Source: Patescibacteria group bacterium (GTDB lineage: Bacteria; Patescibacteriota; JABMPQ01; JAQVVF01). Taken from it: 64,000 bases of DNA. Position 1 is the first letter of the stretch. Each line of letters begins with the position of its first letter. The stretch is from NCBI GenBank assembly GCA_041662665.1, contig JBAZSC010000001.1, forward strand, positions 385,511 through 449,510. The letters are read 5' to 3'. Under the pieces are notes generated by a model. That model saw nothing but the letters and a program-made list of their open reading frames with translations. It ran no database searches and had not been told where the DNA came from. The position numbers were made by a program, and so were the translations under genes. Below are positions 639 to 58,411 of this stretch, in pieces.

Positions 639-705
639 AAATTAGAAATGAGAAATGAGAAATGAGAATAGGTGTTCACATATCCCAGGCTCTCATTTCA
701 CATCT

Positions 706-737
706 CTAAAAAAAATAAAACCCTAGCAATAGGGTAT
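706..737 (-). terminator. Intrinsic terminator (minus strand) ACCCUA-GCAA-UAGGGU followed by a U-run; copy 1 of a repeated cassette
   Basis: The hairpin lies at 720-735 with an A-run at 706-719 on the plus strand (a U-run on the minus transcript), directly after the stop of 740..1069. Confidence 0.6.
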
Positions 738-739
738 TT

Positions 740-1069
740 TTAATGAGCTTGATTTTGATTTTCTTGTCTAGAATGATAAATTTCTAGACGATAAATTGGA
801 ATATTTTGAGAATTTTGAAAACAAATTTTTACATATATTCCTCTAATCTCAAAAACTTCAATACGTACGCCACAAACTTCAAAGTATTGTCCTGCAAAAA
901 GTACGACTTGTCCTCTCAAAGCGATTTCGTATGCATTATTTACTGTAATTCCATTTTTCGTATGTTCAACATTGAAATAAACAGTAGATTTTGTTATCTT
1001 TTCTACTGTTAATTTATTATCATCTCCGATCATCACTGATTCGCCAGATTTTCTAGTTAGAAAGAGCAT
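740..1069 (-). CDS. CsrA-like RNA-binding protein, apparent tandem duplication of the CsrA fold (109 aa)
   Basis: N-terminal MLFLTRKSGESVMIGDD matches CsrA beta1-beta2 (MLxLxRKxxExxxIGxD). C-terminal GVRIEVFEIRGIYVKICFQNSQNIPIYRLEIY matches CsrA beta3-beta5 and the RxEIY motif. A strong SD, GGAGGGAGAGAG, is adjacent to the ATG. Confidence 0.45.
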   Translation of the reverse strand: MLFLTRKSGESVMIGDDNKLTVEKITKSTVYFNVEHTKNGITVNNAYEIALRGQVVLFAGQYFEVCGVRIEVFEIRGIYVKICFQNSQNIPIYRLEIYHSRQENQNQAH

Positions 1070-1130
1070 CTCTCTCCCTCCTGCGTGGTTGTGAGAGCAA
1101 AAAAATAATAACTGAAAATTAAAATTTTGT

Positions 1131-1158
1131 CAAATAAAAAACCCTAATTAATAGGGTA
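1131..1158 (-). terminator. Intrinsic terminator copy 2 (ACCCUA-AUUAA-UAGGGU plus U-run), immediately followed by a TTGACA -35 for the next minus-strand gene
   Basis: Near-identical to the hairpins at 720 and 1566; the shared string is ttgtcaaataaaaaaccctaat. Confidence 0.6.
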
Positions 1159-1495
1159 TAGTTCTTAAGGTACTTTTTTCATGCATTTGATCATATATTT
1201 CTTGGCGAAGAATTTGAATTGTAACTGGTGCTTCAAAACAGATTCTGACAGAATTCTTGTTAACTTGCATGATCGTTACTCTGACTCCAGATACAATAAA
1301 ATATTTTTGCGCAGAATGCTCAAAATTGCCTTGGACAGCTAAAGTTTTGCTGTTTGATTTTGTTGTACCATTCGCGCCATCTAAATATTCCGTAATTTTG
1401 AAAGTTGCAGTCCTTCGCGATGTTCTGATTAAGGTAATTTTGCATGAGTCATCGATCCTTACAGACTCGTACAAGTTCCTTTCTAGAAACAGCAT
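1148..1495 (-). CDS. CsrA-like RNA-binding protein paralog (115 aa; start revised to the internal Met)
   Basis: MLFLERNLYESVRIDD at the N-terminus. C-terminal half GVRVTIMQVNKNSVRICFEAPVTIQILRQEIY aligns to CsrA VxVxxxxGxxVRIGIxAPKxVxIxREEIY. SD GGAGGAG lies 7 nt upstream of the Met at 1495. The ORF-track start at 1558 lacks an RBS. Confidence 0.5.
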   Translation of the reverse strand: MLFLERNLYESVRIDDSCKITLIRTSRRTATFKITEYLDGANGTTKSNSKTLAVQGNFEHSAQKYFIVSGVRVTIMQVNKNSVRICFEAPVTIQILRQEIYDQMHEKSTLRTIPY

Positions 1496-1557
1496 TTTTT
1501 TCTCCTCCTTTGCTTGACTGAACAACTGGAATCTTATCAGAAAACGATATTTTGTCA

Positions 1558-1584
1558 AATAAAAAACCCTAATGAATAGGGTAA
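1558..1584 (-). terminator. Intrinsic terminator copy 3 (ACCCUA-AUGAA-UAGGGU plus U-run)
   Basis: Same cassette as at 720 and 1140, directly after the stop of 1605..1871. Confidence 0.6.
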
Positions 1585-1604
1585 TGAAAGATCAATCTGT
1601 ATAT

Positions 1605-1871
1605 TTATTTGTCTGGAAAATCTTGGATGCAGGACTTATGTTGTTCTGTCAAATATTTGTTATCTGCATGCCATTGGATATTCAGAGTTACAAAAGCAGA
1701 CACCAAGAATACAAACGATATTCCAAAGAAAAATGCAAGAGTGCGTCGTTTTCGATTCAAGTCTAGAATAAGGATTAGAAAAGAAATTCCGCTAACAAAG
1801 AACAAAATTCCAAGAACAAAAAGAAATATTGGCAAGAAAGCATACAAAAGTGCGGCATACATTGTATCCAT
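1605..1871 (-). CDS. Small integral membrane protein (88 aa, two predicted TM helices), hypothetical
   Basis: Two hydrophobic segments. Strong SD GGAGGAGGAA adjacent to the ATG at 1871. Followed by its own copy of the cassette terminator. Confidence 0.5.
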   Translation of the reverse strand: MDTMYAALLYAFLPIFLFVLGILFFVSGISFLILILDLNRKRRTLAFFFGISFVFLVSAFVTLNIQWHADNKYLTEQHKSCIQDFPDK

Positions 1872-1949
1872 TTCCTCCTCCTTTGTCCTCCGTGAGCAAC
1901 GTTAAAGAATACATTTTCTTGATAATATTGTCAATATTTTTCTTTCCTC

Positions 1950-1977: not shown

Positions 1978-2090
1978 ATAATTACTTACAAATAAATATT
2001 CCAGAGACAGTAAGTTTCAGCACAAGCTGAGTAATTCTTGCCGAGGAAAAAACGAGTAACTAGTCATAAGTAACTAGTAATTAGTTTATC

Positions 2091-2119
2091 ATCCTACGGC
2101 AAAGTAGGATTTTTTAATA
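2091..2119 (+). terminator. Leader attenuator-like intrinsic terminator in the rplJ 5' leader
   Basis: ATCCTAC-ggcaaa-GTAGGAT followed by TTTTTT. No plus-strand gene lies upstream, and the rplJ start is 92 nt downstream. Confidence 0.5.
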
Positions 2120-2210
2120 AATAAAAAGTTGAATTTTCGCAGCGCCTGCATCAACGCACATCAGCGTAGATCAGCGTTAGAATCTGCGTTTAATCAGCTT
2201 CTACGAATAT

Positions 2211-2741
2211 ATGGCAAAGACAAGAATTGAAAAAGAAAAGATGGTTAAGGAAACATCTGATAAATTAAATAAAGCAAAATCATTAGTTTTTGCTAATTTT
2301 ACAGGATTGAAAGTTAACGAAGTTCAAGAATTAAAAAAAGAAGCAAAAAAGCAAGATGTTGAATTCTCAGTTGTTAAAAATTCTTTATTCAAATTAGCAA
2401 TGAAGAATTCGGATCTTAAAGATGTCAAGATGGAAGAATTCAAAGGCCCTAGAGCAGTTGCATTTGGTTATTCTGATGAAGTTGCGGGAGCAAAAATATT
2501 GCACACTTTTGCAAAGAAGCACAAAGTAATGCAATTATTAGGCGGTATTTTAGGCAAAGCTTTGTTATCAACTAAAGAAGTTACAAATCTAGCCAAGCTT
2601 CCTTCAAAAGAAGAAATGCTTGCCAAAACTGTTGGCACTATCAAAGCTCCTATCACTTCATTTGTTAATGTTATGGCAGGAAATTTAAGAGGCTTGATCA
2701 ATGTATTAAACGCAGTAAAGGACAAGAAACCTACTAAATAA
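2211..2741 (+). CDS. rplJ: 50S ribosomal protein L10
   Basis: 176 aa with typical L10 length and sequence (MAKTRIEKEKMVKE...FANFTGLKVNEVQELKK), immediately upstream of L7/L12. Confidence 0.9.
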   Translation: MAKTRIEKEKMVKETSDKLNKAKSLVFANFTGLKVNEVQELKKEAKKQDVEFSVVKNSLFKLAMKNSDLKDVKMEEFKGPRAVAFGYSDEVAGAKILHTFAKKHKVMQLLGGILGKALLSTKEVTNLAKLPSKEEMLAKTVGTIKAPITSFVNVMAGNLRGLINVLNAVKDKKPTK

Positions 2742-2827
2742 TTAATTTATATAATAACTAATTTGTTAACAAGCTAATCATTAATTAAGTTCTAATTACT
2801 GATAACTGTTAACTAATAACTAATTTT

Positions 2828-3265
2828 ATGGCAGAAGAAGTAAAGAAAGCTGAAGAAGCTAAAGAAGAGAAAAAAGAAGTAGTAGTTCCAGAAAAATTCA
2901 AAGCCTTAGTAGAAGGAATTGAAAAAATGTCAGTATTGGAACTATCTGAATTGGTAAAAGTTTTGGAAGAAAAATTCGGCGTATCAGCAGCTGCTCCTAT
3001 GGCTATGGCTATGCCAGGTGCTGCAGGTGCAGATGCAGGTGAAGCTGAAGAAAAAACAGAATTCAATATTGAATTGAAAGCTGTTGGTGATCAAAAGATC
3101 CAAGTTATCAAAGCTGTAAAAGAAATTACAGGCAAAGGTCTAAAAGAAGCTAAAGATATGGTAGACAAAGCTCCAGTTGTAGTAAAAGAAAAAGTTGCAA
3201 AAGCTGAAGCAGAAGAATTGAAAAAGAAATTAGAAGCTGCAGGTGCAACAGTTGAATTGAAGTAA
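2828..3265 (+). CDS. rplL: 50S ribosomal protein L7/L12
   Basis: Ala/Glu-rich hinge; C-terminal domain [24 protein letters not shown]...[10 protein letters not shown]. Confidence 0.93.
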
Positions 3266-3340: not shown

Positions 3341-3346
3341 ATGTAA

Positions 3347-7021: not shown

Positions 7022-7058
7022 GATTTTCAAGATGATATTTTTTATTTAATTTATCCTG

Positions 7059-7490
7059 ATGTTCATTGGCGAATACCAACATTCAATTGATGATCGAGGT
7101 CGCTTAGCGATTCCTTCTAAATTTCGTTCCAAAATTAAAAAAGGAGCAGTTGTTACTCGCGGTTTAGACAATTGTCTTTTCCTTTATACAAAAGAAGAAT
7201 GGGAAAAGTTAGCAAACAAATTAGCTAGCCTTCCAATCAGCCAAGCAAATACCAGAGCATTTTCAAGATTGATGTTGGCTGGAGCAATGGATGTTGATTT
7301 AGATAGTCATGGGAGAATAATTATACCTCAATATTTAAGAACATTCTCATCTATCACAAAAAAAGTTATTATCGCTGGATTATATAATCGTTTGGAAATT
7401 TGGGATGAAGAAAAATGGACGATATACAAAACAAATACTGAAAAAAATAGCAGTGAAATCGCTGAAAAAATAGGTGAGTTAGGAGTTTAA
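7059..7490 (+). CDS. mraZ: Transcriptional regulator MraZ
   Basis: MFIGEYQHSIDDRGRLAIPSKFR plus a second DxxxR repeat (MDVDLDSHGRIIIPQYLR); 143 aa; first gene of the dcw cluster. Confidence 0.9.
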   Translation: MFIGEYQHSIDDRGRLAIPSKFRSKIKKGAVVTRGLDNCLFLYTKEEWEKLANKLASLPISQANTRAFSRLMLAGAMDVDLDSHGRIIIPQYLRTFSSITKKVIIAGLYNRLEIWDEEKWTIYKTNTEKNSSEIAEKIGELGV

Positions 7491-7618
7491 CGAGAATTAC
7501 GAATCATGAATAATGAATCATGATTTGAATAACGAAGCATGAATTATGAATATCGTCATTAATCATTATTCAAAATTCGTAATTCAAATCATAATTCTTA
7601 ATTCATAATTCATGATTC

Positions 7619-8551
7619 ATGCAAAGTATCTATCACGTACCTGTCCTTTCAGAAGAAATAATAAAAATCTTTAACCCGCAAAAAAACCAAAATTATATCG
7701 ATGGAACATTAGGAGATGGCGGACACACAGAAATGTTATTAGAAAAAATAGGTCCTAATGGAAAAGTAATGGCATTTGATTTAGATGGTGATGCAATTAT
7801 AAGAGCTTCAAAAAGACTAGAAAAATATAAAGACAGAATTATTTTCATCAACAAAAATTTTAAAGAAATAGAAAAAATAGTAAAAGAAAATAAGTTCACA
7901 GATATTGCAGGAATTTTATTTGATCTCGGTCTTTCAACTTATCAACTTCAAAGTTCTCGCGGATTTTCATTTCAGACCGAAGGAAAGCTCGATATGAAAT
8001 TCGATGAATCAACAAGAAAACACAGATCAGCATTTCAAATTGTCAATGAAGCGAAACCAGAAGAATTAAGACACATCTTTAGAAAATATGGAGAAATTCA
8101 AAATTATTGGAAATTAACAGATACAATAATTAAAAAAAGAACATTAGGCAAAATAAAAACTAGCCAAGAATTAGCTGAAACTGTAAAATATCTTGCTCCA
8201 GAAAGATTTAGAAATAGATATTTAGCTCAAGTTTTTCAAGCAATCAGAATTGCAGTAAATAATGAATTAGAAAATATTACCAATGCCTTAAAGGATTCAA
8301 TAAAAATAATTGAACCAAAAGGAAAAATTGCAGTTATCTCGTATCATTCTCTAGAAGACAGAATAGTTAAACAATTTTTTCAGACGGAAAGCAAAGGCTG
8401 CATTTGTCCGCCAGAAATTCCGATTTGCCAATGCCTACATATCGCATCCTTGAAAATATTAACAAAAAAACCAATTATTCCAACCGAAATAGAAATCAAA
8501 AACAATTCAAAAGCGAGATCAGCAAAATTAAGAATCGCTGAAAAAATATAA
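7619..8551 (+). CDS. rsmH: 16S rRNA (cytosine1402-N4)-methyltransferase RsmH/MraW
   Basis: HVPVLSEEIIKIFNP...DGTLGDGGHTE, a SAM-methyltransferase motif, in the conserved position after mraZ. Confidence 0.9.
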   Translation: MQSIYHVPVLSEEIIKIFNPQKNQNYIDGTLGDGGHTEMLLEKIGPNGKVMAFDLDGDAIIRASKRLEKYKDRIIFINKNFKEIEKIVKENKFTDIAGILFDLGLSTYQLQSSRGFSFQTEGKLDMKFDESTRKHRSAFQIVNEAKPEELRHIFRKYGEIQNYWKLTDTIIKKRTLGKIKTSQELAETVKYLAPERFRNRYLAQVFQAIRIAVNNELENITNALKDSIKIIEPKGKIAVISYHSLEDRIVKQFFQTESKGCICPPEIPICQCLHIASLKILTKKPIIPTEIEIKNNSKARSAKLRIAEKI

Positions 8552-8578
8552 AAACATAAAAAAATAAACAAAAATAAA

Positions 8579-8941
8579 ATGTCAAAGTATTTAACAATCA
8601 ACAAAAATTTAAATTCTAAAAATCGTAACAAAACCGTTAAAAACAAATTATCAGCTGGTCCTGTTACTTTAACAATAGTTACAGTTGTCCTATTTTGTGC
8701 TTTAGGACTTTTGTTTCTTGCTCAAGTTTTTCAATCTCAGACCAAAAGCTATGAAGTTTTAGAACTAAAACAAAAAGCTGAAGAATTAAAACAAGATAAT
8801 AAAGATTTAGAAATTAAATCAGCTGAACTTCGATCAATGGATCACATCAAACAATCAGCAAAACAATTAAATCTAGTAGATACAAAAGATATCGTTTATA
8901 TAAATAAAATCGGCAATTCTGTCGTTGTTATGAATAGATAA
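8579..8941 (+). CDS. ftsL: Cell division protein FtsL-like (single TM plus coiled coil)
   Basis: 120 aa with TM LTIVTVVLFCALGLLFLAQVF followed by a coiled-coil segment; positioned between rsmH and ftsI. Confidence 0.55.
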   Translation: MSKYLTINKNLNSKNRNKTVKNKLSAGPVTLTIVTVVLFCALGLLFLAQVFQSQTKSYEVLELKQKAEELKQDNKDLEIKSAELRSMDHIKQSAKQLNLVDTKDIVYINKIGNSVVVMNR

Positions 8942-9005
8942 AATTAAAAATTAAATATTATCCAACAAAAAAACTCTACTAATATTGCATTTACAAAGGC
9001 CGAAT

Positions 9006-9044
9006 CTAGTGACTAACTAGATTTTATATCTAGTGACTAACTAA
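9006..9044 (+). promoter_or_regulatory. Two copies of the palindrome CTAGTGACTAACTAG/A at 24-bp spacing upstream of ftsI (operator-like)
   Basis: Copies at 9006-9020 and 9030-9044; each is internally palindromic (CTAGT...ACTAG). Confidence 0.3.
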
Positions 9045-9219: not shown

Positions 9220-10947
9220 ATGAAAAAACAAAGAAACAATCCAATTTTTGATCGTCTAAATTTTTTATTTGTCATAATTATAATAGCTGTCATCGCTATT
9301 GTTTTTAAGTTATTTAATCTGCAAGTAGTCAAACATGGCTATTATGAAGCTTTAGCTTCTGGACAGCATAGTTTATTTGAAGAACTAGTACCTGAAAGAG
9401 GCGAGATTTATGTTGAAGACAAATTCTCTAAAAAACTTTATCCATTGGCTATTAACAAAAAAATGAATTTAGTATATGCTGTTCCAAAGGATATTGAAGA
9501 TAAAAATGCAACCAGTATTTTATTATCACCTCTACTTTCAATGTCTAGAAACGATATTTACGATTTAATTTCTGATGAGTCAAAACTATATGTTCCAATA
9601 AAGCATAAAGTTGAAAGCGACACAGTAGAACAAATTAAAAATCTAAATCTGACTGGCATCAGCCATCAAACAGAGGATTGGCGATATTATCCTGACAAAG
9701 TTTTAGGCTCGCATATTTTAGGTTTTGTTGGCTTTGTCAATGATCAAAAAAAAGGACAATATGGTGTTGAAGGTTTTTATGACAATACACTTTCAGGCAA
9801 AAATGGCTTTCTGCAAAGTGAAAAAAATACTTTAGGAGAAATGATTTCTGGCAACTCAAAAAATTTAGTTCAAGGAGCAGAAGATGGCAGTGACATTGTC
9901 TTAACAATTGATCGTTTAATTCAAGACAAAGTAGAAACAGTTGTGAAGGATGCAGTTGAAAAAAATGGCGCTGAAAGCGGTTCAGCAATTGTTTTAGATC
10001 CGCAAACAGGAGCAATAATTGCCATGGCAGGCTATCCAAATTTTGACCCGAATAGTTATTCTGAAGTTGAAAACGTTAATGATTTCAGCAATTCAAGTAT
10101 CTACGAACTTTATGAACCTGGATCTGCCTTCAAGCCATTAATTGTTTCTATGGCTCTTGATCAAAGTTTAATTACTCCAGAAACAAAATTTAATGATAAC
10201 GGTAAAATAGAGATTGGCGAATACACTATCCAAAATTTTGATAAAAAAGCTAACGGCGAATTAACTATTACTCAAATTCTAGAAAAATCAAATAATATTG
10301 GCATGGTGCAAATTGCAAGAACCTTGGGCAGAGACAAAATGTATGATTACCTAATTAATTATGGCTTTGATGAAAATACTGGCATCGATTTGGATACAGA
10401 AGCTGGTGCAAATGTTAAAAAACCAAATGAATGGTCTGAAATGGATTTTGCTACAATGAGTTTTGGACAAGGAATTGCAACAACTCCATTAAGGTTAATA
10501 AATGCAATCGCTTGTGTTGCAAATGGAGGAAGATTATTGAAACCATATATTGTCAAAAAAATTATTAGACCAGACGGATCAGAGGAGACAACAAAACCAA
10601 AAGCAGTCCGTCAAGTGATCAAACCTGAAACAGCAGAGACACTATCAGCAATGATGGTTTCAGTAATGGAAAATGGTTTTGGACAGCCAGCAAGAGTTGC
10701 AGGTTATAAGCTTGCCGGAAAAACAGGCACAGCTCAAGTTCCAAGCGCTGATGGAAAAGGTTATGATCCAAACAAAAAAATCACCACTTTTGTCGGTTTT
10801 GGTCCAATCGAATATCCTCGTTTTGCGATCTTAGTAAAATTAAATAATCCTGGTGGAGATGTGTGGGCGGAATCTGTTACTGGTCCAGCATTCAAATCAA
10901 TTGCGCAAGAATTATTAAAATATTATCAAATAGCACCGAGTAGCTAA
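9220..10947 (+). CDS. ftsI: Peptidoglycan D,D-transpeptidase FtsI / class B PBP
   Basis: N-terminal TM; active-site motifs SAFK (EPGSAFKP), SNN (KSNNIGM) and KTGT. Start taken at MKKQRNN (9220); the ORF-track start at 9208 is also possible. Confidence 0.85.
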   Translation: MKKQRNNPIFDRLNFLFVIIIIAVIAIVFKLFNLQVVKHGYYEALASGQHSLFEELVPERGEIYVEDKFSKKLYPLAINKKMNLVYAVPKDIEDKNATSILLSPLLSMSRNDIYDLISDESKLYVPIKHKVESDTVEQIKNLNLTGISHQTEDWRYYPDKVLGSHILGFVGFVNDQKKGQYGVEGFYDNTLSGKNGFLQSEKNTLGEMISGNSKNLVQGAEDGSDIVLTIDRLIQDKVETVVKDAVEKNGAESGSAIVLDPQTGAIIAMAGYPNFDPNSYSEVENVNDFSNSSIYELYEPGSAFKPLIVSMALDQSLITPETKFNDNGKIEIGEYTIQNFDKKANGELTITQILEKSNNIGMVQIARTLGRDKMYDYLINYGFDENTGIDLDTEAGANVKKPNEWSEMDFATMSFGQGIATTPLRLINAIACVANGGRLLKPYIVKKIIRPDGSEETTKPKAVRQVIKPETAETLSAMMVSVMENGFGQPARVAGYKLAGKTGTAQVPSADGKGYDPNKKITTFVGFGPIEYPRFAILVKLNNPGGDVWAESVTGPAFKSIAQELLKYYQIAPSS

Positions 10948-25051: not shown

Positions 25052-25081
25052 TTATATTTATATTTTTAGTTTTTTACACAA

Positions 25082-25652: not shown

Positions 25653-25679
25653 TTAGCACTAAAGATAAGAGAGTGCTAG
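25653..25679 (+). promoter_or_regulatory. CIRCE operator (HrcA binding site) TTAGCACTA-N9-GAGTGCTAG, plus an extra direct-repeat half-site GAGTGCTAA at 25693-25701
   Basis: Matches the CIRCE consensus TTAGCACTC-N9-GAGTGCTAA, upstream of hrcA-grpE-dnaK-dnaJ. Confidence 0.85.
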
Positions 25680-25797
25680 TGCTCTCGAAACTAGAGTGCT
25701 AATAACCCTGTCATCCTGAACCGTAGTGAAGGATCCCGAAAATGAACGCTCATTCATGGGATTCTTCGGCTTCGGCCTCAGAATGACAGATAAAAAA

Positions 25798-26547: not shown

Positions 26548-26666
26548 AATTTTGAATCTAGAATCTGGAATTGAATTTAGAATATTGAATAAAAAATTCT
26601 GCATTCTAAATTCTGTATTCATTCAAGATTCTAGATTCCAGATTCAAGATTCATAATTTAAAAACT

Positions 26667-27143: not shown

Positions 27144-27284
27144 ATTAACTAGAATCAAGAATCAAGAATTATGAATTAAGAAAAAAGATCTTTATTCATA
27201 ATTCATTATTCATAATTCATCTATCTCAATTCTTTTCAAGTTTTATTCAAGCAATAAACCTGAAAAGAAAAAGAGAACAAATCT

Positions 27285-31495: not shown

Positions 31496-31524
31496 TTGAC
31501 ATTAAAAATCATTCATTATATATT
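31496..31524 (+). promoter_or_regulatory. Promoter TTGACA-17-TATATT for 31564..32223
   Basis: -35 at 31496-31501 and -10 at 31519-31524. Confidence 0.5.
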
Positions 31525-31563
31525 ATCTAGTAAATTCGCACTCTAAAAAAGGAGAAGAGGGAA

Positions 31564-32223
31564 ATGCCAAATCAGCAAGATCGAGTTGAAGCCTTGCAAA
31601 GATTGATTCAGCAAAATCAAGTTAATTTTTTTGATGCATTAGCAAATCATCCAGAAAGGCAACAAGCAGCTGTCCAACATCTTTTGCAAGCGCATCGAGA
31701 ATCACTTGAAGAAACAGCAACAGAACAATTTTCGGATGTTCCAGAACAAGCCAGAAGACAAGCTCTTGATCAACACATGCAAAATCTGCAAAGACAAATG
31801 ACATCTTGTTTGGTTGGATTTGCTGGAAATCAATTAGCCTTGTCGCCATTAGTCCATATTGATGATTATCGTCAAACATTATGCTACAAGGTTTGTAAAT
31901 ATTTAGAATCATTGGGTTATAAACTTAGGATTGAAAATTCAAGCAATTTCAGGCATGCTTGCATTTGTTCAACAAACAGAGATACCTTAATCGATATATA
32001 CAAACCGTTGAATGTCAAGGAAATGTCGTGGCTAGGAAAATTATTTTTCTTTTTTACTCCAGATGTAGACGAGGAAGACCTAAATGAAAAGTTGTGTAGT
32101 TTAATGATTACTCATGGAACTATGGAATTTGAAGTTAATGATGGAAATTCTTATAATGAAGTTTTACAACTCGCCAACAACATTGCCCATCTTTTCCAAG
32201 TCGAAATCACTGTACAATTGTAA
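31564..32223 (+). CDS. Hypothetical Gln-rich protein (219 aa), SD-bearing orphan gene
   Basis: Strong SD AAGGAGAAGAGGG 3 nt upstream of the ATG. Modestly GC-richer than its neighbours. Flanked by the CGCTCCCA repeat blocks. No family recognised. Confidence 0.5.
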   Translation: MPNQQDRVEALQRLIQQNQVNFFDALANHPERQQAAVQHLLQAHRESLEETATEQFSDVPEQARRQALDQHMQNLQRQMTSCLVGFAGNQLALSPLVHIDDYRQTLCYKVCKYLESLGYKLRIENSSNFRHACICSTNRDTLIDIYKPLNVKEMSWLGKLFFFFTPDVDEEDLNEKLCSLMITHGTMEFEVNDGNSYNEVLQLANNIAHLFQVEITVQL

Positions 32224-32248
32224 TCTCCATTTTCGGAGATTTTTTTTA
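32223..32248 (+). terminator. Intrinsic terminator
   Basis: ATCTCC-attttc-GGAGAT followed by TTTTTTTT. Confidence 0.7.
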
Positions 32249-32267
32249 TTTCAGAAAATTAGAATAT

Positions 32268-32344: not shown

Positions 32345-32373
32345 AATAAAAAATCCTGTCAAGATAACAGGAT
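32345..32373 (-). terminator. Intrinsic terminator for the minus-strand gene 32387..32899
   Basis: ATCCTGT-caagata-ACAGGAT with an A-run on the plus strand (a U-run on the minus transcript). Confidence 0.6.
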
Positions 32374-32386
32374 CAAAAAAGTGCGA

Positions 32387-32899
32387 CTAAAAGAGCTGGA
32401 TAGATTCTCCATGTAGAATGGCATCCAAGACATTAATCTGATGCGGTTCCAGCCAAAAACACGTAATAATATTTTGCTCGCGAACAACAAAAATCAAATC
32501 ATCAAATCTATAATATCTAACATCATTCTCTAGCCTTGGGTTGCCTGAAGTTTCTTGCTTCAGATACAATTCCGCCATGCCAGAAATTTCAACGGTTTCA
32601 TCAGAATAAAATAGTCCGATAACCATGAGCGCAACAGTAGAAAGACATAGAATTCCATTCTCTGCATAAAAGCGATCAAAAGCTTTCAAAGCTTCATGGT
32701 ATTTCTTATCAGCAAACATTCTTGAAAAATAATTCTCTTGAGCCGATATTTTGATCTTCAAGGAAGCTGAAACAATATGATCAGGAGACTTAAAAAAATC
32801 GTAGTAACTAAGATCAGGAATTTTTAGTCTTCTTTCAACAAAGCGCTCAATACAATGAACGCTTACTGTTAGGGTATTCACTTTGCTTGGGGAGCACAT
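32387..32899 (-). CDS. Hypothetical protein (170 aa), SD-bearing orphan gene
   Basis: Start revised to MCSPSKVN..., preceded by GAGGAGGG-N7-ATG. The ORF-track N-terminal extension overlaps the conserved promoter-like motif and lacks an RBS. Confidence 0.45.
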   Translation of the reverse strand: MCSPSKVNTLTVSVHCIERFVERRLKIPDLSYYDFFKSPDHIVSASLKIKISAQENYFSRMFADKKYHEALKAFDRFYAENGILCLSTVALMVIGLFYSDETVEISGMAELYLKQETSGNPRLENDVRYYRFDDLIFVVREQNIITCFWLEPHQINVLDAILHGESIQLF

Positions 32900-33046
32900 T
32901 TTCTTGCCCTCCTCTGCTGTTTCTTGTCTAGGGAACAATAAAATATAATATAACTTTTTAATTAAAAAGTCAAGCTGTTTACTAAAAAAATATTTTATGA
33001 TATTATCAAATAAAGAAGAGTATTCGCATAATTCGCATATTTGCAA

Positions 33047-33535: not shown

Positions 33536-33623
33536 AATGTGAATTAAGAATAACGAATTATGAATTATGATAATTTATTATATTTCTCATTTTTTGTTCT
33601 TAATTCTTAATTCTTAATTCTCT

Positions 33624-38148: not shown

Positions 38149-38176
38149 AGCCAGGAAATTTCCTGGCTTTTTGTAT
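38149..38176 (+). terminator. Intrinsic terminator
   Basis: AGCCAGGAAA-TTTCCTGGCT followed by TTTTTGTATTT. Confidence 0.75.
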
Positions 38177-38211
38177 TTACAAAAAATCAAAAAAAATATA
38201 TAATATCGCGT

Positions 38212-39342: not shown

Positions 39343-39422
39343 CTATTGTAAAATAGTAATTAGTAACTAGTAATTTGTTAATTCGTTTCTAGTTACTAAT
39401 TACGAATTACTAATTACAACAT

Positions 39423-39742: not shown

Positions 39743-41554
39743 ATGACATCTCAAGACCTAATCAACAAATACCTAGCTTTTTTCAAAAGCAAAGGCCATC
39801 AAATCATACCAGGCGCATCGCTGATTCCAGAACATGATCCATCTGTTTTATTTACAACTGCTGGAATGCATCCATTAGTTCCTTTTTTGTTAGGCGAAAA
39901 ACATCCGCAAGGAAAAAGATTAACAGATCTTCAGAGATGTTTAAGAACTGTTGATATTGATAATGTCGGTGACAACTGGCACTCAACTTTTTTTGAAATG
40001 CTTGGAAATTGGTCTTTGGGCGATTATTTTAAAGAAGACGCAATCAAGTTTGCCTACGAATTTTTAACAAGCAAAGAATACTTAAATATTTATCCTGGTA
40101 AATTATCAGTTACAGTTTTTGCTGGCGATAATGATGCGAAAAAAGACGAAGAAGCGATAAAAACTTGGCAAAATTTAGGCATTCCAAATGATAGAATTTA
40201 TCCGCTTCCAAAAGAAGATAATTGGTGGGGACCAGCAGGTGAAGTTGGTCCATGCGGACCTGATACCGAAATTTTTTATGATACAGACAAAGAAAAATGT
40301 TGTGATGATTGCAAGCCAGGCTGTGGTTGTGGAAAATATGTTGAAATCTGGAACTTAGTTTTTATGAGCTATAACAAAACAAAAGATGGAAAATTCTTGC
40401 CATTAGCCCAAAAAAATATTGATACTGGCATGGGTGTTGATAGAACTTTAGCTGTACTTCATACTTTTGATAATTCTTATCAAACAGAATTATTCAAGCC
40501 AGTTATGGATTTATTGGAAGATAAATTATCTGGCCATTCTCAAGATTTTAACAATGTTACAAAAGACCCAATTAAATCAAAAAGAATAATTGCTGATCAT
40601 ATTAGAGCTTCTGTATTTTTATTGATGGATGGAGTTACTCCTTCAAATCTTGATCAAGGCTATATTTTGCGCCGATTAATTAGACGCGCAGTCCGTCATG
40701 CCAAATTATTAGAAATTAAAAAAGAAGAAAAAGTAAATCAGCAAATTGCTAATTTATTTATAAATATTTATAAAGCCAGATACCCAAAATTATTAGAGCA
40801 AAAAGATTTTATTATAAAAGAATTGCAAGATGAAGAAGATAGATTTGAAATTTCTTTAGCAAAAGGTTTAAAAGTTTTTGAAAAAATAACGTCATGTAGA
40901 GACGATGCACCGCATCGTCTCCGAGACAAAAAGATTAGAGGTCTTGATGCATTTCATCTTTATGACACTTATGGCTTTCCAATTGAAATGACCAAAGAAT
41001 TAGCCAAGGAAAAAGGATTTAGTGTCGACGAAAAAGAATTCGGTTTAGAATTTGTAAAACATCAAGCATTATCAAGAAAAGGTGCAGAGAAAAAATTTAA
41101 AGGAGGCCTAGCTGACCATTCAGAAATAACAACAAGACTCCACACTGCAACTCATCTCTTGCATCAAGCATTACGCCAAGTGTTAGGCGAACAAGTTCAA
41201 CAAAAAGGCAGTAACATTAATCCAGAACGTTTGCGCTTTGATTTTAATTATGATCAGAAAATGACGCCTGAACAATTGCAACAAGTTGAAAAAATAGTTA
41301 ATGATCAAATTAAAAAAGGTTTAGAAATTAAAATGGAAGAAATGTCTGTTGACGAAGCAAAGTCAAAAGGCGCAATTGGTTTATTTACAGAAAAATACGG
41401 TGATAAAGTAAAAGTTTATTCTATAGGCGATTTTTCCAAAGAAATCTGTGGCGGTCCTCATGCAAAAAACACAAAAGAACTACATCATTTTAAAATAAAA
41501 AAAGAAGAATCAAGTTCTGCTGGAGTTAGAAGAATCAAAGCAATTTTAGATTAA
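39743..41554 (+). CDS. alaS: Alanine--tRNA ligase (catalytic, tRNA-recognition and editing domains; apparently lacking the C-terminal C-Ala domain)
   Basis: FTTAGMHPLVPF, NWSLGDYFKEDAI and the editing HxxxH (HTATHLLHQALRQVLG). Ends ...GGPHAKNTKELHHFKI at 604 aa. Start at MTSQDL. Confidence 0.8.
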   Translation: MTSQDLINKYLAFFKSKGHQIIPGASLIPEHDPSVLFTTAGMHPLVPFLLGEKHPQGKRLTDLQRCLRTVDIDNVGDNWHSTFFEMLGNWSLGDYFKEDAIKFAYEFLTSKEYLNIYPGKLSVTVFAGDNDAKKDEEAIKTWQNLGIPNDRIYPLPKEDNWWGPAGEVGPCGPDTEIFYDTDKEKCCDDCKPGCGCGKYVEIWNLVFMSYNKTKDGKFLPLAQKNIDTGMGVDRTLAVLHTFDNSYQTELFKPVMDLLEDKLSGHSQDFNNVTKDPIKSKRIIADHIRASVFLLMDGVTPSNLDQGYILRRLIRRAVRHAKLLEIKKEEKVNQQIANLFINIYKARYPKLLEQKDFIIKELQDEEDRFEISLAKGLKVFEKITSCRDDAPHRLRDKKIRGLDAFHLYDTYGFPIEMTKELAKEKGFSVDEKEFGLEFVKHQALSRKGAEKKFKGGLADHSEITTRLHTATHLLHQALRQVLGEQVQQKGSNINPERLRFDFNYDQKMTPEQLQQVEKIVNDQIKKGLEIKMEEMSVDEAKSKGAIGLFTEKYGDKVKVYSIGDFSKEICGGPHAKNTKELHHFKIKKEESSSAGVRRIKAILD

Positions 41555-41560
41555 AAAAAG

Positions 41561-41581
41561 ACTTGCTGAACAAGTCTCAAA
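41561..41581. terminator. Bidirectional hairpin between convergent alaS and 41577..41984
   Basis: AGACTTG-ctgaa-CAAGTCT with an A-run before it. Confidence 0.45.
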
Positions 41582-41984
41582 GAACTTTTTTGTGAAGCTC
41601 AAAAACCTTTATACATGGTACAGACACTGGAGAACGTGACAATATAGCAAGACGAGAAAAACTAAAAATTTCACTCAAGAGATGATCATAAACATCACCG
41701 CTAGCAGGAATTTCTTGACGGATTTGTTCGGGGCTGCTATTTTCAACATACGAAATTTCCGTGCAGGAAAAACCATGTGAATTCGCGAACCAGTTCAAAA
41801 GCATTTCTGCATCAGCGAGAATTCCTACTCGCAACTCAAAACGAGAAGACTGTCTGTCAGGCCAATTAACCTGTTGTCGATCTTTATCCGTTAAAGTTAA
41901 TGCAGCAACAGAACAATTAATCGCAGATTTTACGTAAGGTAGAATAGTAATAATTACGAAGTCACCGTCTTGTAACTGCCTCAT
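41577..41984 (-). CDS. Hypothetical protein (135 aa), SD-bearing GC-richer orphan gene
   Basis: GGAGGGAGGAG immediately upstream of the ATG; composition visibly less AT-rich; no family recognised. Confidence 0.45.
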   Translation of the reverse strand: MRQLQDGDFVIITILPYVKSAINCSVAALTLTDKDRQQVNWPDRQSSRFELRVGILADAEMLLNWFANSHGFSCTEISYVENSSPEQIRQEIPASGDVYDHLLSEIFSFSRLAILSRSPVSVPCIKVFELHKKVL

Positions 41985-42071
41985 CTCCTCCCTCCTTTTC
42001 TAGGGTGCGAGAATATTATCACTCAAATAAGAATAGAATATCAATGATAAATTGTCAATTCAATAACAATT

Positions 42072-49482: not shown

Positions 49483-49569
49483 CAGTTGAATTTAATCTTA
49501 AATTAAATAAAAGAGATTAGAAAAACTTTCTCAATATCCAATTTCTAATTTCCAATTTCTAAATCTATT

Positions 49570-52604: not shown

Positions 52605-52667
52605 TTTTCTCTTGAAAAGAAAAAGAACAATAGTATACTTATATTAGCTCTTTGCAGGAGGAAAACG

Positions 52668-53159
52668 ATGAAGCCAAGTAAAGGATTCAACGCTCCATCA
52701 ATGTGTAGAACTTATCTACGCGAAGATCAGAATCAACATAAAAATGAAGATGACTTGAAACAGAGATTGTATAACAGTATTAGGAAAATCTTGGGCATCA
52801 ATATTTCTGACCAAGAATTAATGCAAAGCATGAAAAAACTGTCTGCAAGATCGCAACGAGAAAATATGATTCGTCATGTTCGACCGGCACATCAAGAATC
52901 TTTAAGACGTATTCAAGATCTAGACCTTATCAAAGAAACGTACCGCAATCTCAACACTGAACTCACAGACGAGCAAGCAAGTATAGTTAGAGACGAATTA
53001 TTAGATAAGTTTTTACCTGGTTGGTTAGATGACCGTTTTGATTCGTTGGGTTTTTTCTGGGCAATGGATTTGTTGCCAGCATGGTATTCTACAAAAGAAC
53101 GAATGGCAAAAGTTTTAGATATCGATCTTTCAAGGTATCCACCACTTGAATCAGCCTAG
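52668..53159 (+). CDS. Hypothetical protein (163 aa), SD-bearing orphan gene
   Basis: AGGAGGA lies 5 nt upstream of the ATG at 52668. The track ORF start at 52548 runs through the upstream terminator. Followed by the terminator AATCAGCCTAGGCTGATTTTTTTT. Confidence 0.45.
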   Translation: MKPSKGFNAPSMCRTYLREDQNQHKNEDDLKQRLYNSIRKILGINISDQELMQSMKKLSARSQRENMIRHVRPAHQESLRRIQDLDLIKETYRNLNTELTDEQASIVRDELLDKFLPGWLDDRFDSLGFFWAMDLLPAWYSTKERMAKVLDIDLSRYPPLESA

Positions 53160-53350
53160 GCTGATTTTTTTTATACTTGTCAGCCGAAGTGTCAAAATAT
53201 TTTTTTAAGATAAAGAATTTCAACAGTAAAAGAAAGAATTCGTAAAACAAGTCCAAACAAAAACGAAGGCTGACAAAAAAACTGCATTTCAGCAGTTAGT
53301 AATCTGTGTATCTGTGTCGCATCTGTTAAATATCTGTATAAAATCTGTGG

Positions 53351-54781: not shown

Positions 54782-54895
54782 ATAATATATTAATTAAAAA
54801 ATAACAATTTTTAATCATTTTGTCAAAACCAATCTTGACAGTTAAAATTGAGTTTGATAAAATATGCTTTGATTCGACCCAACGAGGAGGGAGAA

Positions 54896-55111
54896 ATGGC
54901 CTCACATGACACTTCCAGTGATGTGAAATTGGCACGAAAAATACTTGAAGAGTTTGATCCAGCAGAACTTCCTGAAGTTTCGCCTGATCAGCTGCCTGAC
55001 TTGCCAGAAGACAATCCGCCTCCTCCTAACCCTTTAGACCCGCTTGATGAAGGTAGAAGAAGCCCAATCAGATCAAAATTTCATGTCTATGGAGTTAACG
55101 AACTATTTTGA
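54896..55111 (+). CDS. Small acidic Pro-rich hypothetical protein (71 aa), SD-bearing orphan gene
   Basis: GAGGAGGGAG lies 3 nt upstream of the ATG; start at MASHD. Confidence 0.35.
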   Translation: MASHDTSSDVKLARKILEEFDPAELPEVSPDQLPDLPEDNPPPPNPLDPLDEGRRSPIRSKFHVYGVNELF

Positions 55112-55173
55112 GTAATTTCTTTTCTGAAATTATCGTAATTGTTCTAGTTTCCTCAAGAAAGGAGAAGAAAGAA

Positions 55174-55368
55174 ATGCCAAAAGATTGGAATAGTATTGTT
55201 GGAAAGCCAAATCTAACTTCAAGAATTCCGGGACAGCCTACTGATATTGAGTTAGCGCAATGGAAAAAGGAACTTGCACAGCCATTGACTCTGTTAATCA
55301 TATTTGATGAAGATGAGCTTACAGAATGGAACAAATCCCATCAGATTCCAGATTTGATTGCAGGTTAA
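55174..55368 (+). CDS. Small hypothetical protein (64 aa), SD-bearing orphan gene
   Basis: AAAGGAGAAG lies 6 nt upstream of the ATG; followed by the terminator ACTGTGA-ttt-TCACAGT plus T7 (55391-55414). Confidence 0.35.
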   Translation: MPKDWNSIVGKPNLTSRIPGQPTDIELAQWKKELAQPLTLLIIFDEDELTEWNKSHQIPDLIAG

Positions 55369-55493
55369 TACATTTTTTGCACTTTTTACTACTGTGATTT
55401 TCACAGTTTTTTTATGTTGTATTTTCGCTATTTTTGTAATATACTTAAATAAATTCTAGTTACTTATTACTAGTTACTAATTACTTTTGTTTT

Positions 55494-56771
55494 ATGTCCA
55501 AATTCATAATTACAGGCCCAAATAAATTATCCGGCGAAATAAAAGTTGCAGGTGCAAAAAACAATGCCTTAAAAGTCATTGCTGCTACAGTTTTGACAGA
55601 TCAAGAAGTGATCTTAAAAAACATTCCAGATATTGAAGATGTTCATGTTATGTTTGAAATTTTAAAAGATCTTGGTGGTAATGTAGAAAAAATTAACGAT
55701 CATGAATACAAAGTCCAAACTAAAGAAATTAAAAAAACAGAATTAAACAAAAATCTAGTTGCAAAATTACGCGCTTCAATAATGTTTTTAGCTCCATTAC
55801 TAACTAGAGTTAACGAAGTAAAATTTCCATTTCCAGGTGGTGATATCATTGGTAAAAGACCAATTGATATTTATTTAGATGGCTTAGATCAGTTTGGCGT
55901 TGAAATAAAATTTGAACGAGATTATTATCATCTGAAAAGAACTAATGAAAAACTAAAAGCAACAAAATTTGTTTTTCCAATTATTTCTCATACTGTTACA
56001 GAAAGTTTAATTATGTCAGGAGTGTTGGCAGAAGGCAAAACAGTTCTAATTAACACAGCTTGTGAGCCAGAAATTGTCAGTTTGGCAGAATTTTTGAATT
56101 CTTTAGGAGCAAAAATTACCGGTGCTGGTACTCCAAATATTGAAATTGAAGGAGTCCCAAGTCTTAGCGGCGGAGAATTTACAGCAATTCCAGATCGTAT
56201 TGAAACTGGAACTTTTGCAATTTTGGGAGCATTGACTGGTGGCGATTTAAAAATTACAAATTGCGAACCGTCACATCTTGAAGTTTTCTGGAAAGTACTA
56301 AAACATATTGGTGTTAATTTTGAAATTGGCAAAGACTTTGTTAAGATAAATCCTTCAGAAGATCTTAATGTATGCAAAGGTTTAAATGCTTGTGAAGTTA
56401 GAACTCATGAATATCCAGGTTTCGCTACAGACTTGCAAGCTCCAGCAACAATTCTTTTAACTCAAGCCAAAGGTTTAAGCATGGTTCATGAAACAATTTA
56501 TGAAGGCAGATTATTCTATACTGATTCACTTAACAAAATGGGTGCCAATATTATTATGTGCGATCCGCATCGAATTGTTGTCCAAGGTCCAACAAAACTT
56601 TATGGCGCAAAACTAGAAAGTCCGGATATTAGAGCTGGTATTGCTTTAGTTATTGCAGCTTTAATTGCAGAAGGCAAATCAGAAATTGATAATATTTACC
56701 AAATTGATCGGGGATATGAAAAGATTGAGGAGAGGTTAAGAAATTTAGGAGCAAATATTCAAAGAGTCTAA
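55494..56771 (+). CDS. murA: UDP-N-acetylglucosamine 1-carboxyvinyltransferase
   Basis: GAKNNALKVIAA and the KLSGEIKVAGAKN EPSP-synthase-fold signature; 425 aa. Confidence 0.9.
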   Translation: MSKFIITGPNKLSGEIKVAGAKNNALKVIAATVLTDQEVILKNIPDIEDVHVMFEILKDLGGNVEKINDHEYKVQTKEIKKTELNKNLVAKLRASIMFLAPLLTRVNEVKFPFPGGDIIGKRPIDIYLDGLDQFGVEIKFERDYYHLKRTNEKLKATKFVFPIISHTVTESLIMSGVLAEGKTVLINTACEPEIVSLAEFLNSLGAKITGAGTPNIEIEGVPSLSGGEFTAIPDRIETGTFAILGALTGGDLKITNCEPSHLEVFWKVLKHIGVNFEIGKDFVKINPSEDLNVCKGLNACEVRTHEYPGFATDLQAPATILLTQAKGLSMVHETIYEGRLFYTDSLNKMGANIIMCDPHRIVVQGPTKLYGAKLESPDIRAGIALVIAALIAEGKSEIDNIYQIDRGYEKIEERLRNLGANIQRV

Positions 56772-56910
56772 TTTCTAATTTTCAATTTCTAATTTCTATT
56801 AAATGTCTAATAATCTAATTTTTAAACCTTCATGTCGTCGTCGATGTTTAGAAATTAATTATTAAAAATTTAATAGAAATTTAGAATTAGAAATTGAAAA
56901 TTTTCACGTT

Positions 56911-57921
56911 ATGTTTATAAAAAAAATCGGCATTGATTTAGGTACAGCAAACTCAGTTGTTTATCTTCCAAAAAAAGGTATTGTTTTGAATGAGCCATCA
57001 GTTGTTGCAGTTTCAATAGATGATAATTCAATTCTTGCAGTTGGTAATGAAGCAAAACAAATGCTTGGTCGAACACCAGACACAATTGTTGCTTCTCGTC
57101 CAATGAAAGATGGAGTTATCGCAGATTATCGTGTTACTGAAGCAATGCTCAAATATTTTATTAACAAATCAATTGGCAATGTCAGACTTTTTCGTCCAGA
57201 AGTTATGGTTGCAGTTCCAGCTGGTATTACTTCAACAGAGAGAAGAGCTGTAGTTGATGCTACAATGAATGCTGGTGCAAAAGCTGCATATATCATCAAA
57301 GAGCCAATCGCTGCTGCTATCGGTGCTGGAATTCCAATCGCTCAATCTTGTGGAAATATGATTATTGATATTGGCGGCGGAACAACTGAGGTTGCTGTTA
57401 TTTCTTTAGGTGGCATTGTTGCTGTGAATTCAGTTCGTGTTGCTGGAAACAAATTAGATATGGCTATTGCAAATTATATCCGCAAAAAACATGGTTTAGT
57501 TATCGGTGACAGAACAGCTGAAGAAATCAAAATTAAAATTGGTACAGCTTTACCAGTTGAAAAAGAAGATTCAATAGAAATCCGAGGCCGTGATATGGTT
57601 CGAGGTCTTCCAAAAAATATTATTGTTACTTCAAATGAAACAACTGAAGCAATTCAAGACGAACTTCGTGAAATTGTTCAAGCTGCCAAAGCAGTTTTGC
57701 AAGAAACTCCTCCAGAATTATCAGCAGATGTCATGGATAAAGGCATGATTTTATCAGGTGGTGGAGGATTGTTAAGAAATTTAGATCAACTTTTAGCCAA
57801 GGCAACAGGTGTTCCATGTTATGTTGCCGAAGATCCGCTTTTATGTGTTGTTAAAGGAACAGCAGCTGCTTTAGAGAATCTTGATTCGTATAAGAGAAGC
57901 GTTTTAGCTTCTAAAAGGTAA
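56911..57921 (+). CDS. mreB: Rod shape-determining protein MreB
   Basis: IGIDLGTANSVVY, DIGGGTTEVAVIS and GGGGLLRNLD. Confidence 0.9.
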   Translation: MFIKKIGIDLGTANSVVYLPKKGIVLNEPSVVAVSIDDNSILAVGNEAKQMLGRTPDTIVASRPMKDGVIADYRVTEAMLKYFINKSIGNVRLFRPEVMVAVPAGITSTERRAVVDATMNAGAKAAYIIKEPIAAAIGAGIPIAQSCGNMIIDIGGGTTEVAVISLGGIVAVNSVRVAGNKLDMAIANYIRKKHGLVIGDRTAEEIKIKIGTALPVEKEDSIEIRGRDMVRGLPKNIIVTSNETTEAIQDELREIVQAAKAVLQETPPELSADVMDKGMILSGGGGLLRNLDQLLAKATGVPCYVAEDPLLCVVKGTAAALENLDSYKRSVLASKR

Positions 57922-58060
57922 AATCCTAAGCACTAATATCTAAATTCTAAACCTGCCTACCGGCAGGCAGGCAAACTCAAAATACAAATGTTCAAATTTA
58001 ATCTTATTCTGAATAATAAAAAAACCGCAAACACAAGTTTAACGGTTAAACAGAGAGCAA

Positions 58061-58273
58061 TTATTTTAAAGAAATGGTAATTCTCGGCAGAACATCTTGG
58101 CTGATATCGAGTTCAATGTTTAATAATTGATTATTTTCATAAACGAATCTACCAAGCGCTTCTAAAAGGGTGTCACCAAAAACTTCGATGTGATGCTTGC
58201 CCTTTAAACAAACATTGACTTTTTCTTTACCACTTGCGGGTTCCACTTTTCTCGTAACGATCAGTTTTGCCAT
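58061..58273 (-). CDS. Small hypothetical protein (70 aa), SD-bearing orphan gene
   Basis: GGAGGAGGAAG lies 4 nt upstream of the ATG; no family recognised. Confidence 0.4.
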   Translation of the reverse strand: MAKLIVTRKVEPASGKEKVNVCLKGKHHIEVFGDTLLEALGRFVYENNQLLNIELDISQDVLPRITISLK

Positions 58274-58411
58274 TTTCTTCCTCCTCCTTTTTCCGGACCA
58301 GAATAATATAGTATAATAAAACCGATTACAAAAAACAATAGTTTTTAGATTTTATATTTTGATCATTTAGATTTGTTTAGTATTTAGAATTTAGGATTTA
58401 GAATTTTAGCC

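Follow-up and report, generated by a model that had tools for sequence, protein, structure and literature searches.

The window analysed here is a stretch of 64,000 nucleotides (nt) from a Patescibacteria group bacterium (contig JBAZSC010000001.1, positions 385,511 to 449,510), in which translation starts fall into two classes. Ten genes, organized in nine cassettes, are preceded by strong Shine-Dalgarno (SD) sequences, and the starts of the other genes, among them ribosomal and cell-division genes, carry none. This partition is confirmed as real and sharp. The explanation that we favour, with moderate confidence, is that SD-led accessory cassettes reside in an SD-independent genome, with two modes of initiation allotted by gene class.

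The window has a GC content of 31-32% and holds about 61 genes, nearly all on the plus strand, together with two tRNAs and an L10 leader (1983-2124, Rfam). The names given to its core genes by an earlier, sequence-only reading of this DNA are borne out by Pfam. MraZ, RsmH, FtsI, MurF, AlaS, FtsA, RpoA, MurA, MreB and IF-1 were identified on the window proteins; ribosomal protein L10 was identified through precomputed matches on a contig of the same organism (L001), and HrcA, GrpE, DnaK, DnaJ and MnmA through precomputed matches on sister-species genes (locus L085).

Two classes of translation start

For every gene, a pairing energy was calculated as the RNA duplex formed by positions -20 to -1 with ACCUCCUUA, taken as an assumed anti-SD partner. 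The ten genes pair at -8.7 to -12.5 kcal/mol. The strongest pairing at any other annotated start (about 50 genes) is -4.0 kcal/mol, at 58412, and the majority lie above 0. The energies are bimodal, with an empty gap between -4.0 and -8.7 kcal/mol. The sequence-only reading had located these ten starts and their motifs and had described the core genes as devoid of SD sequences; both statements hold, all ten motifs being GGAGG or GGAG. Its spacing of 3-7 nt has to be corrected, since 5-9 nt separate the GGAG(G) core, measured at its 3′ end, from the ATG in ten out of ten genes, within the canonical range of 4-10 nt. Gene 1605 has two tandem cores, the first 15 nt and the proximal one 5 nt from the ATG.

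The pentamer GGAGG occurs 48 times in the window, both strands counted, which is near the expectation from composition. Intergenic copies are all found in eight of the ten SD leaders, with a lone exception at 63868, beyond the last complete gene; the remaining two SD leaders carry GGAG only, and the other copies of GGAGG are in-frame Gly-Gly codons within genes. The placement of the intergenic copies and the behaviour of control motifs led us to set aside chance occurrence as an explanation. A chimeric assembly was likewise set aside, since independent contigs and the genomes of sister species show the same arrangement.

The two classes also differ in what surrounds the start codon. When the 10 SD-led genes are compared with 50 core genes of the window, predicted folding of the start region is stronger in the former (-10.1 versus -3.7 kcal/mol, p = 6e-6) and GC content is higher both upstream (0.47 versus 0.18, p = 1e-6) and in the first 30 nt (0.42 versus 0.29, p = 1e-4). 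Core leaders are depleted in G, which accounts for 2-8% of the bases at the majority of positions between -17 and -1 and for up to 10% at two, and are enriched in A at -7 to -4, and 49 of the 50 core genes start with ATG. The coding regions differ as well. GC at third codon positions (GC3) is 0.288 in SD-led genes and 0.209 in core genes (p = 3e-4 by Mann-Whitney test, and p = 0.004 when the comparison is limited to small non-SD genes), in agreement with the earlier impression that the SD set is less AT-rich. Lysine makes up 5.7% of SD-led proteins versus 11.5% of core proteins, the median length is 112 versus 284 amino acids (aa; p = 6e-4), and 6 of 10 SD-led genes lie on the minus strand versus 3 of 50 core genes (p = 3e-4).

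Two further descriptions of the set hold in part. The absence of any known family is correct for eight of the ten genes but not for the two that the same reading called CsrA-like, which match PF02599 at 53.2 and 55.7 bits (Pfam cutoff 27). All ten are short in the window, but an SD sequence also precedes a 655-aa trypsin-like gene of a sister species, so that the class is better called accessory than strictly small. Some SD-less genes of the window are orphans too. Those at 20372-21196 and 24335-25594 are also fast-evolving or repetitive; one SD-less orphan protein consists of three repeats of about 80 aa (period 240 nt), and the tandem SD-less paralogues 24335 and 25082 share 68% identity across the N-terminal ~125 residues and show 44-48% identity to the sister species.

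Organization of the SD-led cassettes

Each SD unit comprises a near-consensus sigma-70 promoter, a leader of 28-45 nt, a short open reading frame (ORF) and an intrinsic terminator made of a hairpin and a T-run. The -35 box is TTGACA in six of the nine promoters. In the SD leaders, a C/T-rich patch located at -14 to -7 with respect to GGAG precedes an A-run, and predicted folds often show this patch base-paired with the SD sequence. The nine cassettes are as follows, with the pairing energy of each coding sequence (CDS) in kcal/mol.

Cassette 1, 712..1133 (-): CsrA-like protein, 109 aa, CDS 1069-740, Pfam CsrA 53 bits, pairing -10.8; promoter TTGACA-17-TATTAT 1133-1105; purine/SD tract AGGAGGGAGAGAG 1082-1070; terminator hairpin 735-720 with T-run
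Cassette 2, 1135..1558 (-): CsrA-like paralogue, 115 aa, 36% identical to that of cassette 1, CDS 1495-1148, pairing -11.6; promoter TTGACA-16-TAAGAT 1558-1531; SD tract AAAGGAGGAGAAAAAA 1511-1496; terminator 1157-1141
Cassette 3, 1560..1934 (-): 88-aa membrane protein, CDS 1871-1605, pairing -12.1, with SD-led orthologues in both sister species (26-36% identity); promoter TTGACA-17-TATTCT 1934-1906; double SD tract GGAGGACAAAGGAGGAGGAA 1891-1872; terminator 1582-1566
Cassette 4, 31496..32250 (+): 219-aa orphan, CDS 31564-32223, pairing -8.7, three homologues only (47-60% identity); promoter TTGACA-17-TATATT 31496-31524; SD tract 31545-31563; terminator 32222-32241
Cassette 5, 32345..32973 (-): 170-aa hypervariable protein, CDS 32899-32387, pairing -12.5; promoter TTGACT-17-TATTAT 32973-32945, holding the palindrome CTTTTTAATTAAAAAG; SD tract 32915-32900; terminator 32374-32352
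Cassette 6, 41550..42058 (-): 135-aa orphan, CDS 41984-41577, pairing -12.1; promoter TTGACA-17-TATTCT 42058-42030; SD tract AGAAAAGGAGGGAGGAG 42001-41985; terminator 41578-41558
Cassette 7, 52612..53175 (+): 163-aa species-specific orphan, CDS 52668-53159, pairing -10.3; promoter TTGAAA-16-TATACT 52612-52639; SD tract AGGAGGAAAACG 52656-52667; terminator 53148-53167
Cassette 8, 54835..55415 (+), apparently bicistronic: 71-aa acidic, proline-rich ORF 54896-55111 (+) with SD at 54884-54895, pairing -12.3, then 64-aa ORF 55174-55368 (+) with SD at 55155-55173, pairing -8.7; one shared promoter, TTGACA-17-TAAAAT 54835-54863, and one shared terminator, 55391-55407
Cassette 9, 57991..58331 (-): 70-aa species-specific orphan, CDS 58273-58061, pairing -12.1; promoter TTGTAA-17-TATTAT 58331-58303; SD tract GGAAAAAGGAGGAGGAAGAAA 58294-58274; a hairpin and T-run are predicted within ~50 nt past the stop codon, although the terminator scan did not flag them

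A special class of promoter was considered as the hallmark of these units and rejected, because core operons likewise use TTGACA-type promoters and intrinsic terminators. The SD sequence is therefore their distinguishing part. In the CsrA island formed by the first three cassettes, the T-run of the terminator of cassette 2 enters the -35 box of cassette 1 (ACCCTATTnATTAGGGTTTTTTATTTGACAAAAT). This terminator/-35 junction module is present three times, the third copy being more diverged, which points to an origin of the island by tandem duplication of a cassette. Leaders of the unrelated families 31564 and 41577 have in common the motif ATTC(N0-2)GCAC(N)CT(N)AAAA(A)GGAG (31534-31554 and 41995-42014(-) in the window; ~570-590(-) in the related locus L005), which suggests a reused leader module.

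Conservation and turnover among relatives

Scanning GTDB genomes with MurA yielded 80 related loci. Two congeners are 88% identical to the window in MurA and further relatives 76, 67, 63 and 61%; Kuenen-, Falkow-, Buchanan-, Staskawicz-, Komeili- and Moranbacteria follow at 51-58%. Because the MurA relatives fall in these lineages, the host, as judged from sequence, is a Parcubacteria-type bacterium of the candidate phyla radiation, with a genome of about 0.65 Mb. In nearly all of the 80 loci, large genes lack an SD sequence.

Core proteins of the window are 75-99% identical to those of two sister species. SD-led proteins are 26-60% identical where an orthologue occurs (1605, CsrA, 31564, 32387, 41577, 54896), and 52668, 55174 and 58061 are absent from both sister species. 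In these species, the gene of cassette 7 is missing between rpsI and a 476-aa gene, and that of cassette 9 between mreB and a glycosyltransferase gene; the latter gap houses a different 88-aa SD-led gene in the relative L010. Other gaps between core operons likewise hold different cargo from one genome to the next:

Gap between yceG and rplJ, window: two CsrA-like genes and a membrane protein
The same gap, sister species 1: canonical CsrA, a secreted 161-aa protein and a membrane protein, all SD-led
The same gap, sister species 2: secreted and membrane proteins only, both SD-led
Downstream of the 33624 orthologue: nothing in the window; the 655-aa trypsin-like gene in one relative and a 271-aa membrane protein in another, both SD-led
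Upstream of murA: small SD-led ORFs in the window, L006 and L007; none in L005

Among the cargo are a membrane protein, an acidic proline-rich peptide and, in the sister species, a secreted protein. A HMMER (phmmer) search of 1.84 billion representative proteins, with the eight non-CsrA proteins of the window concatenated into one query, found homologues for two of them, 31564 (three, at 47-60% identity) and 32387 (two, at 56 and 30%), and none for the other six. A word-indexed protein search returned only the self-match for the 115-aa CsrA-like protein. Pfam, PHROGs and PADLOC matched nothing beyond CsrA, and viral contigs gave no relatives of three families. A metagenome scan with one family found the same organism only; samples that contain it include SRR18595301 and JGI 3300014208. 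The AlphaFold2 model of the 219-aa protein (mean predicted local distance difference test score of 65) was too uncertain for a structure search; a model of the 170-aa protein had no match in the PDB with Foldseek.

In six families with two to four species each, the two promoter boxes (-35 and -10) and GGAGG form islands of conservation in leaders that otherwise diverge. GGAGG is kept in orthologues whose proteins are only 26-60% identical, which argues for a function of the sequence rather than for a mere leftover, and the joint conservation of promoter and GGAGG indicates that the signal is under selection. Promoter and SD are kept in all three homologues of cassette 4. At cassette 6, GGAGG is kept in the L005 homologue (32% identity over 75 aa) and also in L006, where a small gene without detectable similarity to 41577 takes the corresponding place. 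The most extreme case is 32387. One relative has a protein that is 30% identical, between flanking genes that are ~85-90% identical (estimated by eye), and its promoter is nearly unchanged, including a perfect palindrome of 16 nt (CTTTTTAATTAAAAAG) that fills the spacer of the two promoter boxes (32945-32973). The palindrome is kept in three species and is likely an operator. Together with the hypervariability of the protein, it is a hint of a possible conflict or addiction module, and a toxin-antitoxin module of the RelE/ParE type was considered for this gene. As for a co-transcribed partner, the adjacent gene 31564 is oriented convergently and does not run in the same direction.

The signal also has a style of its own in the genus. 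The spacer between GGAGG and ATG is 87% purine, as compared with 68% in SD-led genes of other lineages (p = 4e-6), and GGAGGT occurs in 1 of 27 cases in the genus versus 12 of 34 elsewhere. SD-led genes account for about 14% of the sampled genes of the genus; in other SD-less relatives, their excess over control motifs is about 2%. The split that was noticed in the window extends to the sister species. The SD-led genes make up a flexible fraction of the genome, and the partition between core and flexible genes reaches beyond this one window. No account of such a core/accessory SD split in Patescibacteria turned up in the literature searches.

A proposed explanation and the possible reader of the signal

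Considering the properties of the two classes, the favoured explanation runs as follows. Core genes start on G-depleted, A/T-rich, unstructured leaders without SD sequence, and some of them may be leaderless. The small, fast-evolving genes form a flexible pool lodged in hot-spot gaps between core operons, each as an autonomous unit. As their start regions are GC-richer and more structured, they would probably be barred from the SD-independent route and depend on GGAGG. This GGAGG would be read by an anti-SD sequence retained in the 16S rRNA of the genus. The cassettes, probably of foreign origin, would have entered, or would circulate, via horizontal transfer. CsrA would be one such cargo gene, and may also modulate GGA-rich leaders.

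Several observations weigh against this explanation. The only two 16S 3′ ends recovered among the relatives, those of the more distant L051 and L098, lack CCUCC. A tail with an anti-SD would read ...GGAUCACCUCC... and one without it GGAUCAAUU...; the 3′ end of L051 is GGATCAATTTTACT and that of L098, near 10555-10610, is GGATCAATTAAACT, both with GGATCAATT... in place of GGATCACCTCC. Moreover, in L098 SD-like motifs precede four of about seven Pfam-less, compositionally deviant genes of low GC3 (4813, 5497, 7825(-) and 14168(-)), versus none of 14 Pfam-positive genes, which means that SD-like leaders can exist without an anti-SD. In the window, no avoidance of GGAGG inside coding regions was seen. 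No integrase or transposase appeared in the gene lists of the window and of the fetched loci. No foreign phylogeny was demonstrated, the sole pointer being the CsrA of sister species 1, about 60% identical to its gammaproteobacterial counterparts in E. coli and Pseudomonas. Finally, the genus sample consists of about 175 kb of loci rather than of whole genomes.

The two genomes that provided the tails differ from each other. L051, the one locus among the 80 found with MurA to carry a 16S gene, is Parcubacteria GW2011_GWA2_38_13b; this gene is 2012 nt long, contains insertions (7033-9044) and lies just upstream of pncA and murA; it has essentially no SD-led genes. L098 (ENA k141_1975085) is a Parcubacteria relative of 53% GC. 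Their tails agree with the detection of an anti-SD motif in 48% of Parcubacteria (Tsurumaki et al., 2022, RNA 28:1041, PMC9297842). On the other hand, locus L008 (CAYFQT010000024.1; 67% MurA identity), nearer to the window by MurA than L009, L010, L051 and L098, has SD sequences on core genes including murA and mreB. This implies that an anti-SD exists nearby in the tree and, as almost all of the other 79 loci behave differently, that SD usage varies within the clade. Because of the SD usage in L008 and the conservation of the signal in the genus, we consider it fairly probable that the genus keeps a functional anti-SD.

Should the genus lack an anti-SD, as L051 and L098 do, the GGAGG sequences might be relics inherited from SD-using donors and functionless in their present host. 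The sequence-only reading had considered such donors, and part of the evidence agrees: relatives devoid of anti-SD exist, one of them with the same split, the set deviates in composition, four of its ten genes are species-specific, with no orthologue at the syntenic site in the sister species, the sister CsrA resembles gammaproteobacterial ones, and SD-led ORFs in other relatives often have strongly elevated GC3. A donor alone, however, leaves unexplained the conserved SD and promoter and the polypurine spacer peculiar to the genus. GGAGG and its spacing survive at 26-36% protein identity in leaders that are otherwise scrambled, promoters are conserved vertically at fixed syntenic positions, the donor-typical GGAGGT is nearly absent, and the SD-led share in the genus exceeds by far the ~2% excess of other SD-less relatives. 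We regard functionless relics as improbable. About equally improbable is a second possibility on the same premise, in which GGAGG with its polypurine tract would be a separate signal of the flexible genome, read by a CsrA-type or other protein, or by another part of the ribosome.

Place of the CsrA-like proteins

CsrA and RsmA regulate translation and bind to GGA motifs that overlap with SD sequences; binding relies on residues of beta1 (L2, L4, R6/R7) and of beta5 (R44 within HREEIY). The two window proteins also match the CsrA-like family of PHROGs, and together with the sister protein they belong to PF02599 with intact RNA-binding segments: in the window proteins, beta1 reads MLFLTRK... as compared with MLILTRR..., and beta5 reads ...IYRLEIY or ILRQEIY as compared with VHREEIY. 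At 109 and 115 aa, they deviate from the single CsrA domain of ~55-75 aa. They are internally expanded, with an N-terminal beta1-beta3-like segment (profile positions 1-32), an insertion of ~35 residues and a second segment spanning beta2-beta5 and the helix (positions 14-52). In sister species 1, the corresponding locus encodes a CsrA of canonical form and 75 aa (L093 8438-8665), and sister species 2 has no CsrA at the yceG-rplJ locus and yet possesses SD-led genes.

From these comparisons, CsrA belongs to the variable cargo and may stem from proteobacteria. Although it may have an effect on GGA-rich leaders, the existence of the SD class cannot be due to it, since species that possess SD-led genes differ in their CsrA content. 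This bears on a regulon in which the GGA-rich leaders would primarily be CsrA binding sites and the genes would be under co-ordinate post-transcriptional control, by repression or activation. The idea draws on the Pfam matches and the preserved beta1 and beta5 segments, on the 2-5 GGA triplets found in most leaders, more than anti-SD pairing needs, on the genus-specific polypurine spacer and on the GGA-rich leaders of the CsrA genes themselves, as autoregulation would predict. It is weakened by the varying CsrA content. Furthermore, GGA triplets lie mostly in predicted stems or in open purine tracts and not in hairpin loops of the high-affinity type, no antagonist small RNA (sponge) or FliW partner is evident, and the tight 5-9 nt spacing to the ATG is predicted by ribosome pairing and unneeded for protein binding. 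A CsrA master regulon thus appears unlikely, though it is a stronger contender than relics, and two initiation modes with CsrA as one of the cargo genes remain the explanation that we prefer.

Comparison with other systems

In Bacteroidia such as Flavobacterium johnsoniae, initiation does not depend on SD sequences: the anti-SD is kept sequestered, and a strong SD persists on only a few genes, rpsU in particular. The window resembles this situation in that the majority of genes, including ribosomal and cell-division genes, are SD-less with A-rich, G-poor leaders, alongside a strong-SD minority. It differs in lineage, here Patescibacteria, and in the nature of the minority, which is made of fast-evolving accessory orphans in promoter-terminator cassettes instead of an autoregulatory ribosomal-protein gene. 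By analogy, the anti-SD might be present but occluded or scarce, and SD-led genes might require a subpopulation or a state of the ribosome. The composition of core leaders would suit such conditional access, as would the tolerance of internal GGAGG, expected if the anti-SD is usually unavailable, and the pairing of SD sequences with the upstream C/T patch, which suggests regulated exposure. The predicted hairpins are short, however, rpsU lies outside the window and the fetched loci, and the argument is one of analogy; of all the alternatives, we find this one the least probable.

The loss of anti-SD described in Parcubacteria (Tsurumaki et al., 2022, PMC9297842) concerns the same broad lineage. 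The searched passages of that paper describe the rRNA feature and make no mention of a residual SD-led class; the genus of the window, by contrast, conserves such a class at a high rate. Horizontally acquired islets offer a last comparison. The cassettes share with them an atypical GC3 and amino-acid usage, a patchy presence and hot spots with different cargo in each species. Unlike such islets, they showed neither repeat boundaries nor, in the gene lists, mobility genes; each gene is a single minimal cassette, and several SD-led genes keep their syntenic place as stable orthologues, in which the promoters are conserved and the coding regions hypervariable.

Other features of the window

The promoter of mnmA (TTTACA-17-TATAAT, 38176-38212) ends 8 nt before the ATG, so that its transcript may be leaderless. 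Nearly every intergenic spacer contains short tandem arrays of 4-8 units, each 7-8 nt long (such as TCATAAT, TTCTTAA, AATTACT and ACGCTCCC), among them those at 7501-7620, 26539-26653, 27151-27220, 31434-31488, 32275-32345, 33597-33621, 39389-39417, 49527-49562, 55452-55485, 56767-56902 and 58376-58406. Many of them lie directly upstream of SD-less core genes, and similar repeats are found upstream in sister-species loci. These arrays might be related to SD-independent initiation or to promoter context.

No rplK-rplA genes precede the rplJ-rplL pair and its L10 leader (1983-3265); uL1 is absent in many Parcubacteria. Upstream of hrcA, at ~25655-25700, an inverted repeat resembling CIRCE (controlling inverted repeat of chaperone expression), TTAGCACTC-N9-GAGTGCTA, is the putative operator expected for HrcA. 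The gap between dnaK and dnaJ (29233-29263) holds a perfect 14-bp GC-rich hairpin, CGTAGCGACAGGGCACTGCCCTGTCGCTACG, with no T-run behind it. Between ftsI and murF, both sister species have a 23S_rRNA_IVP gene (PF05635; L091 18632-18997 and L093 19071-19442), which the window lacks.

Implications

If the favoured explanation is true, one bacterium keeps two initiation regimes, its core genes being translated without SD sequences and its flexible genes with them. The SD sequence would then serve as a marker, readable from sequence, of accessory or recently acquired genes in Patescibacteria, and gene callers that apply one start-site model per genome would mis-start one of the two gene classes. 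The loss of the anti-SD in Parcubacteria would become directly testable, by asking whether SD-led genes vanish, persist as relics or gain another reader. The cassettes, with their strong promoter, SD and terminator, would also provide ready-made expression parts for an uncultured phylum. Finally, their hypervariable cargo may point to genes involved in interaction with a host or in conflict.

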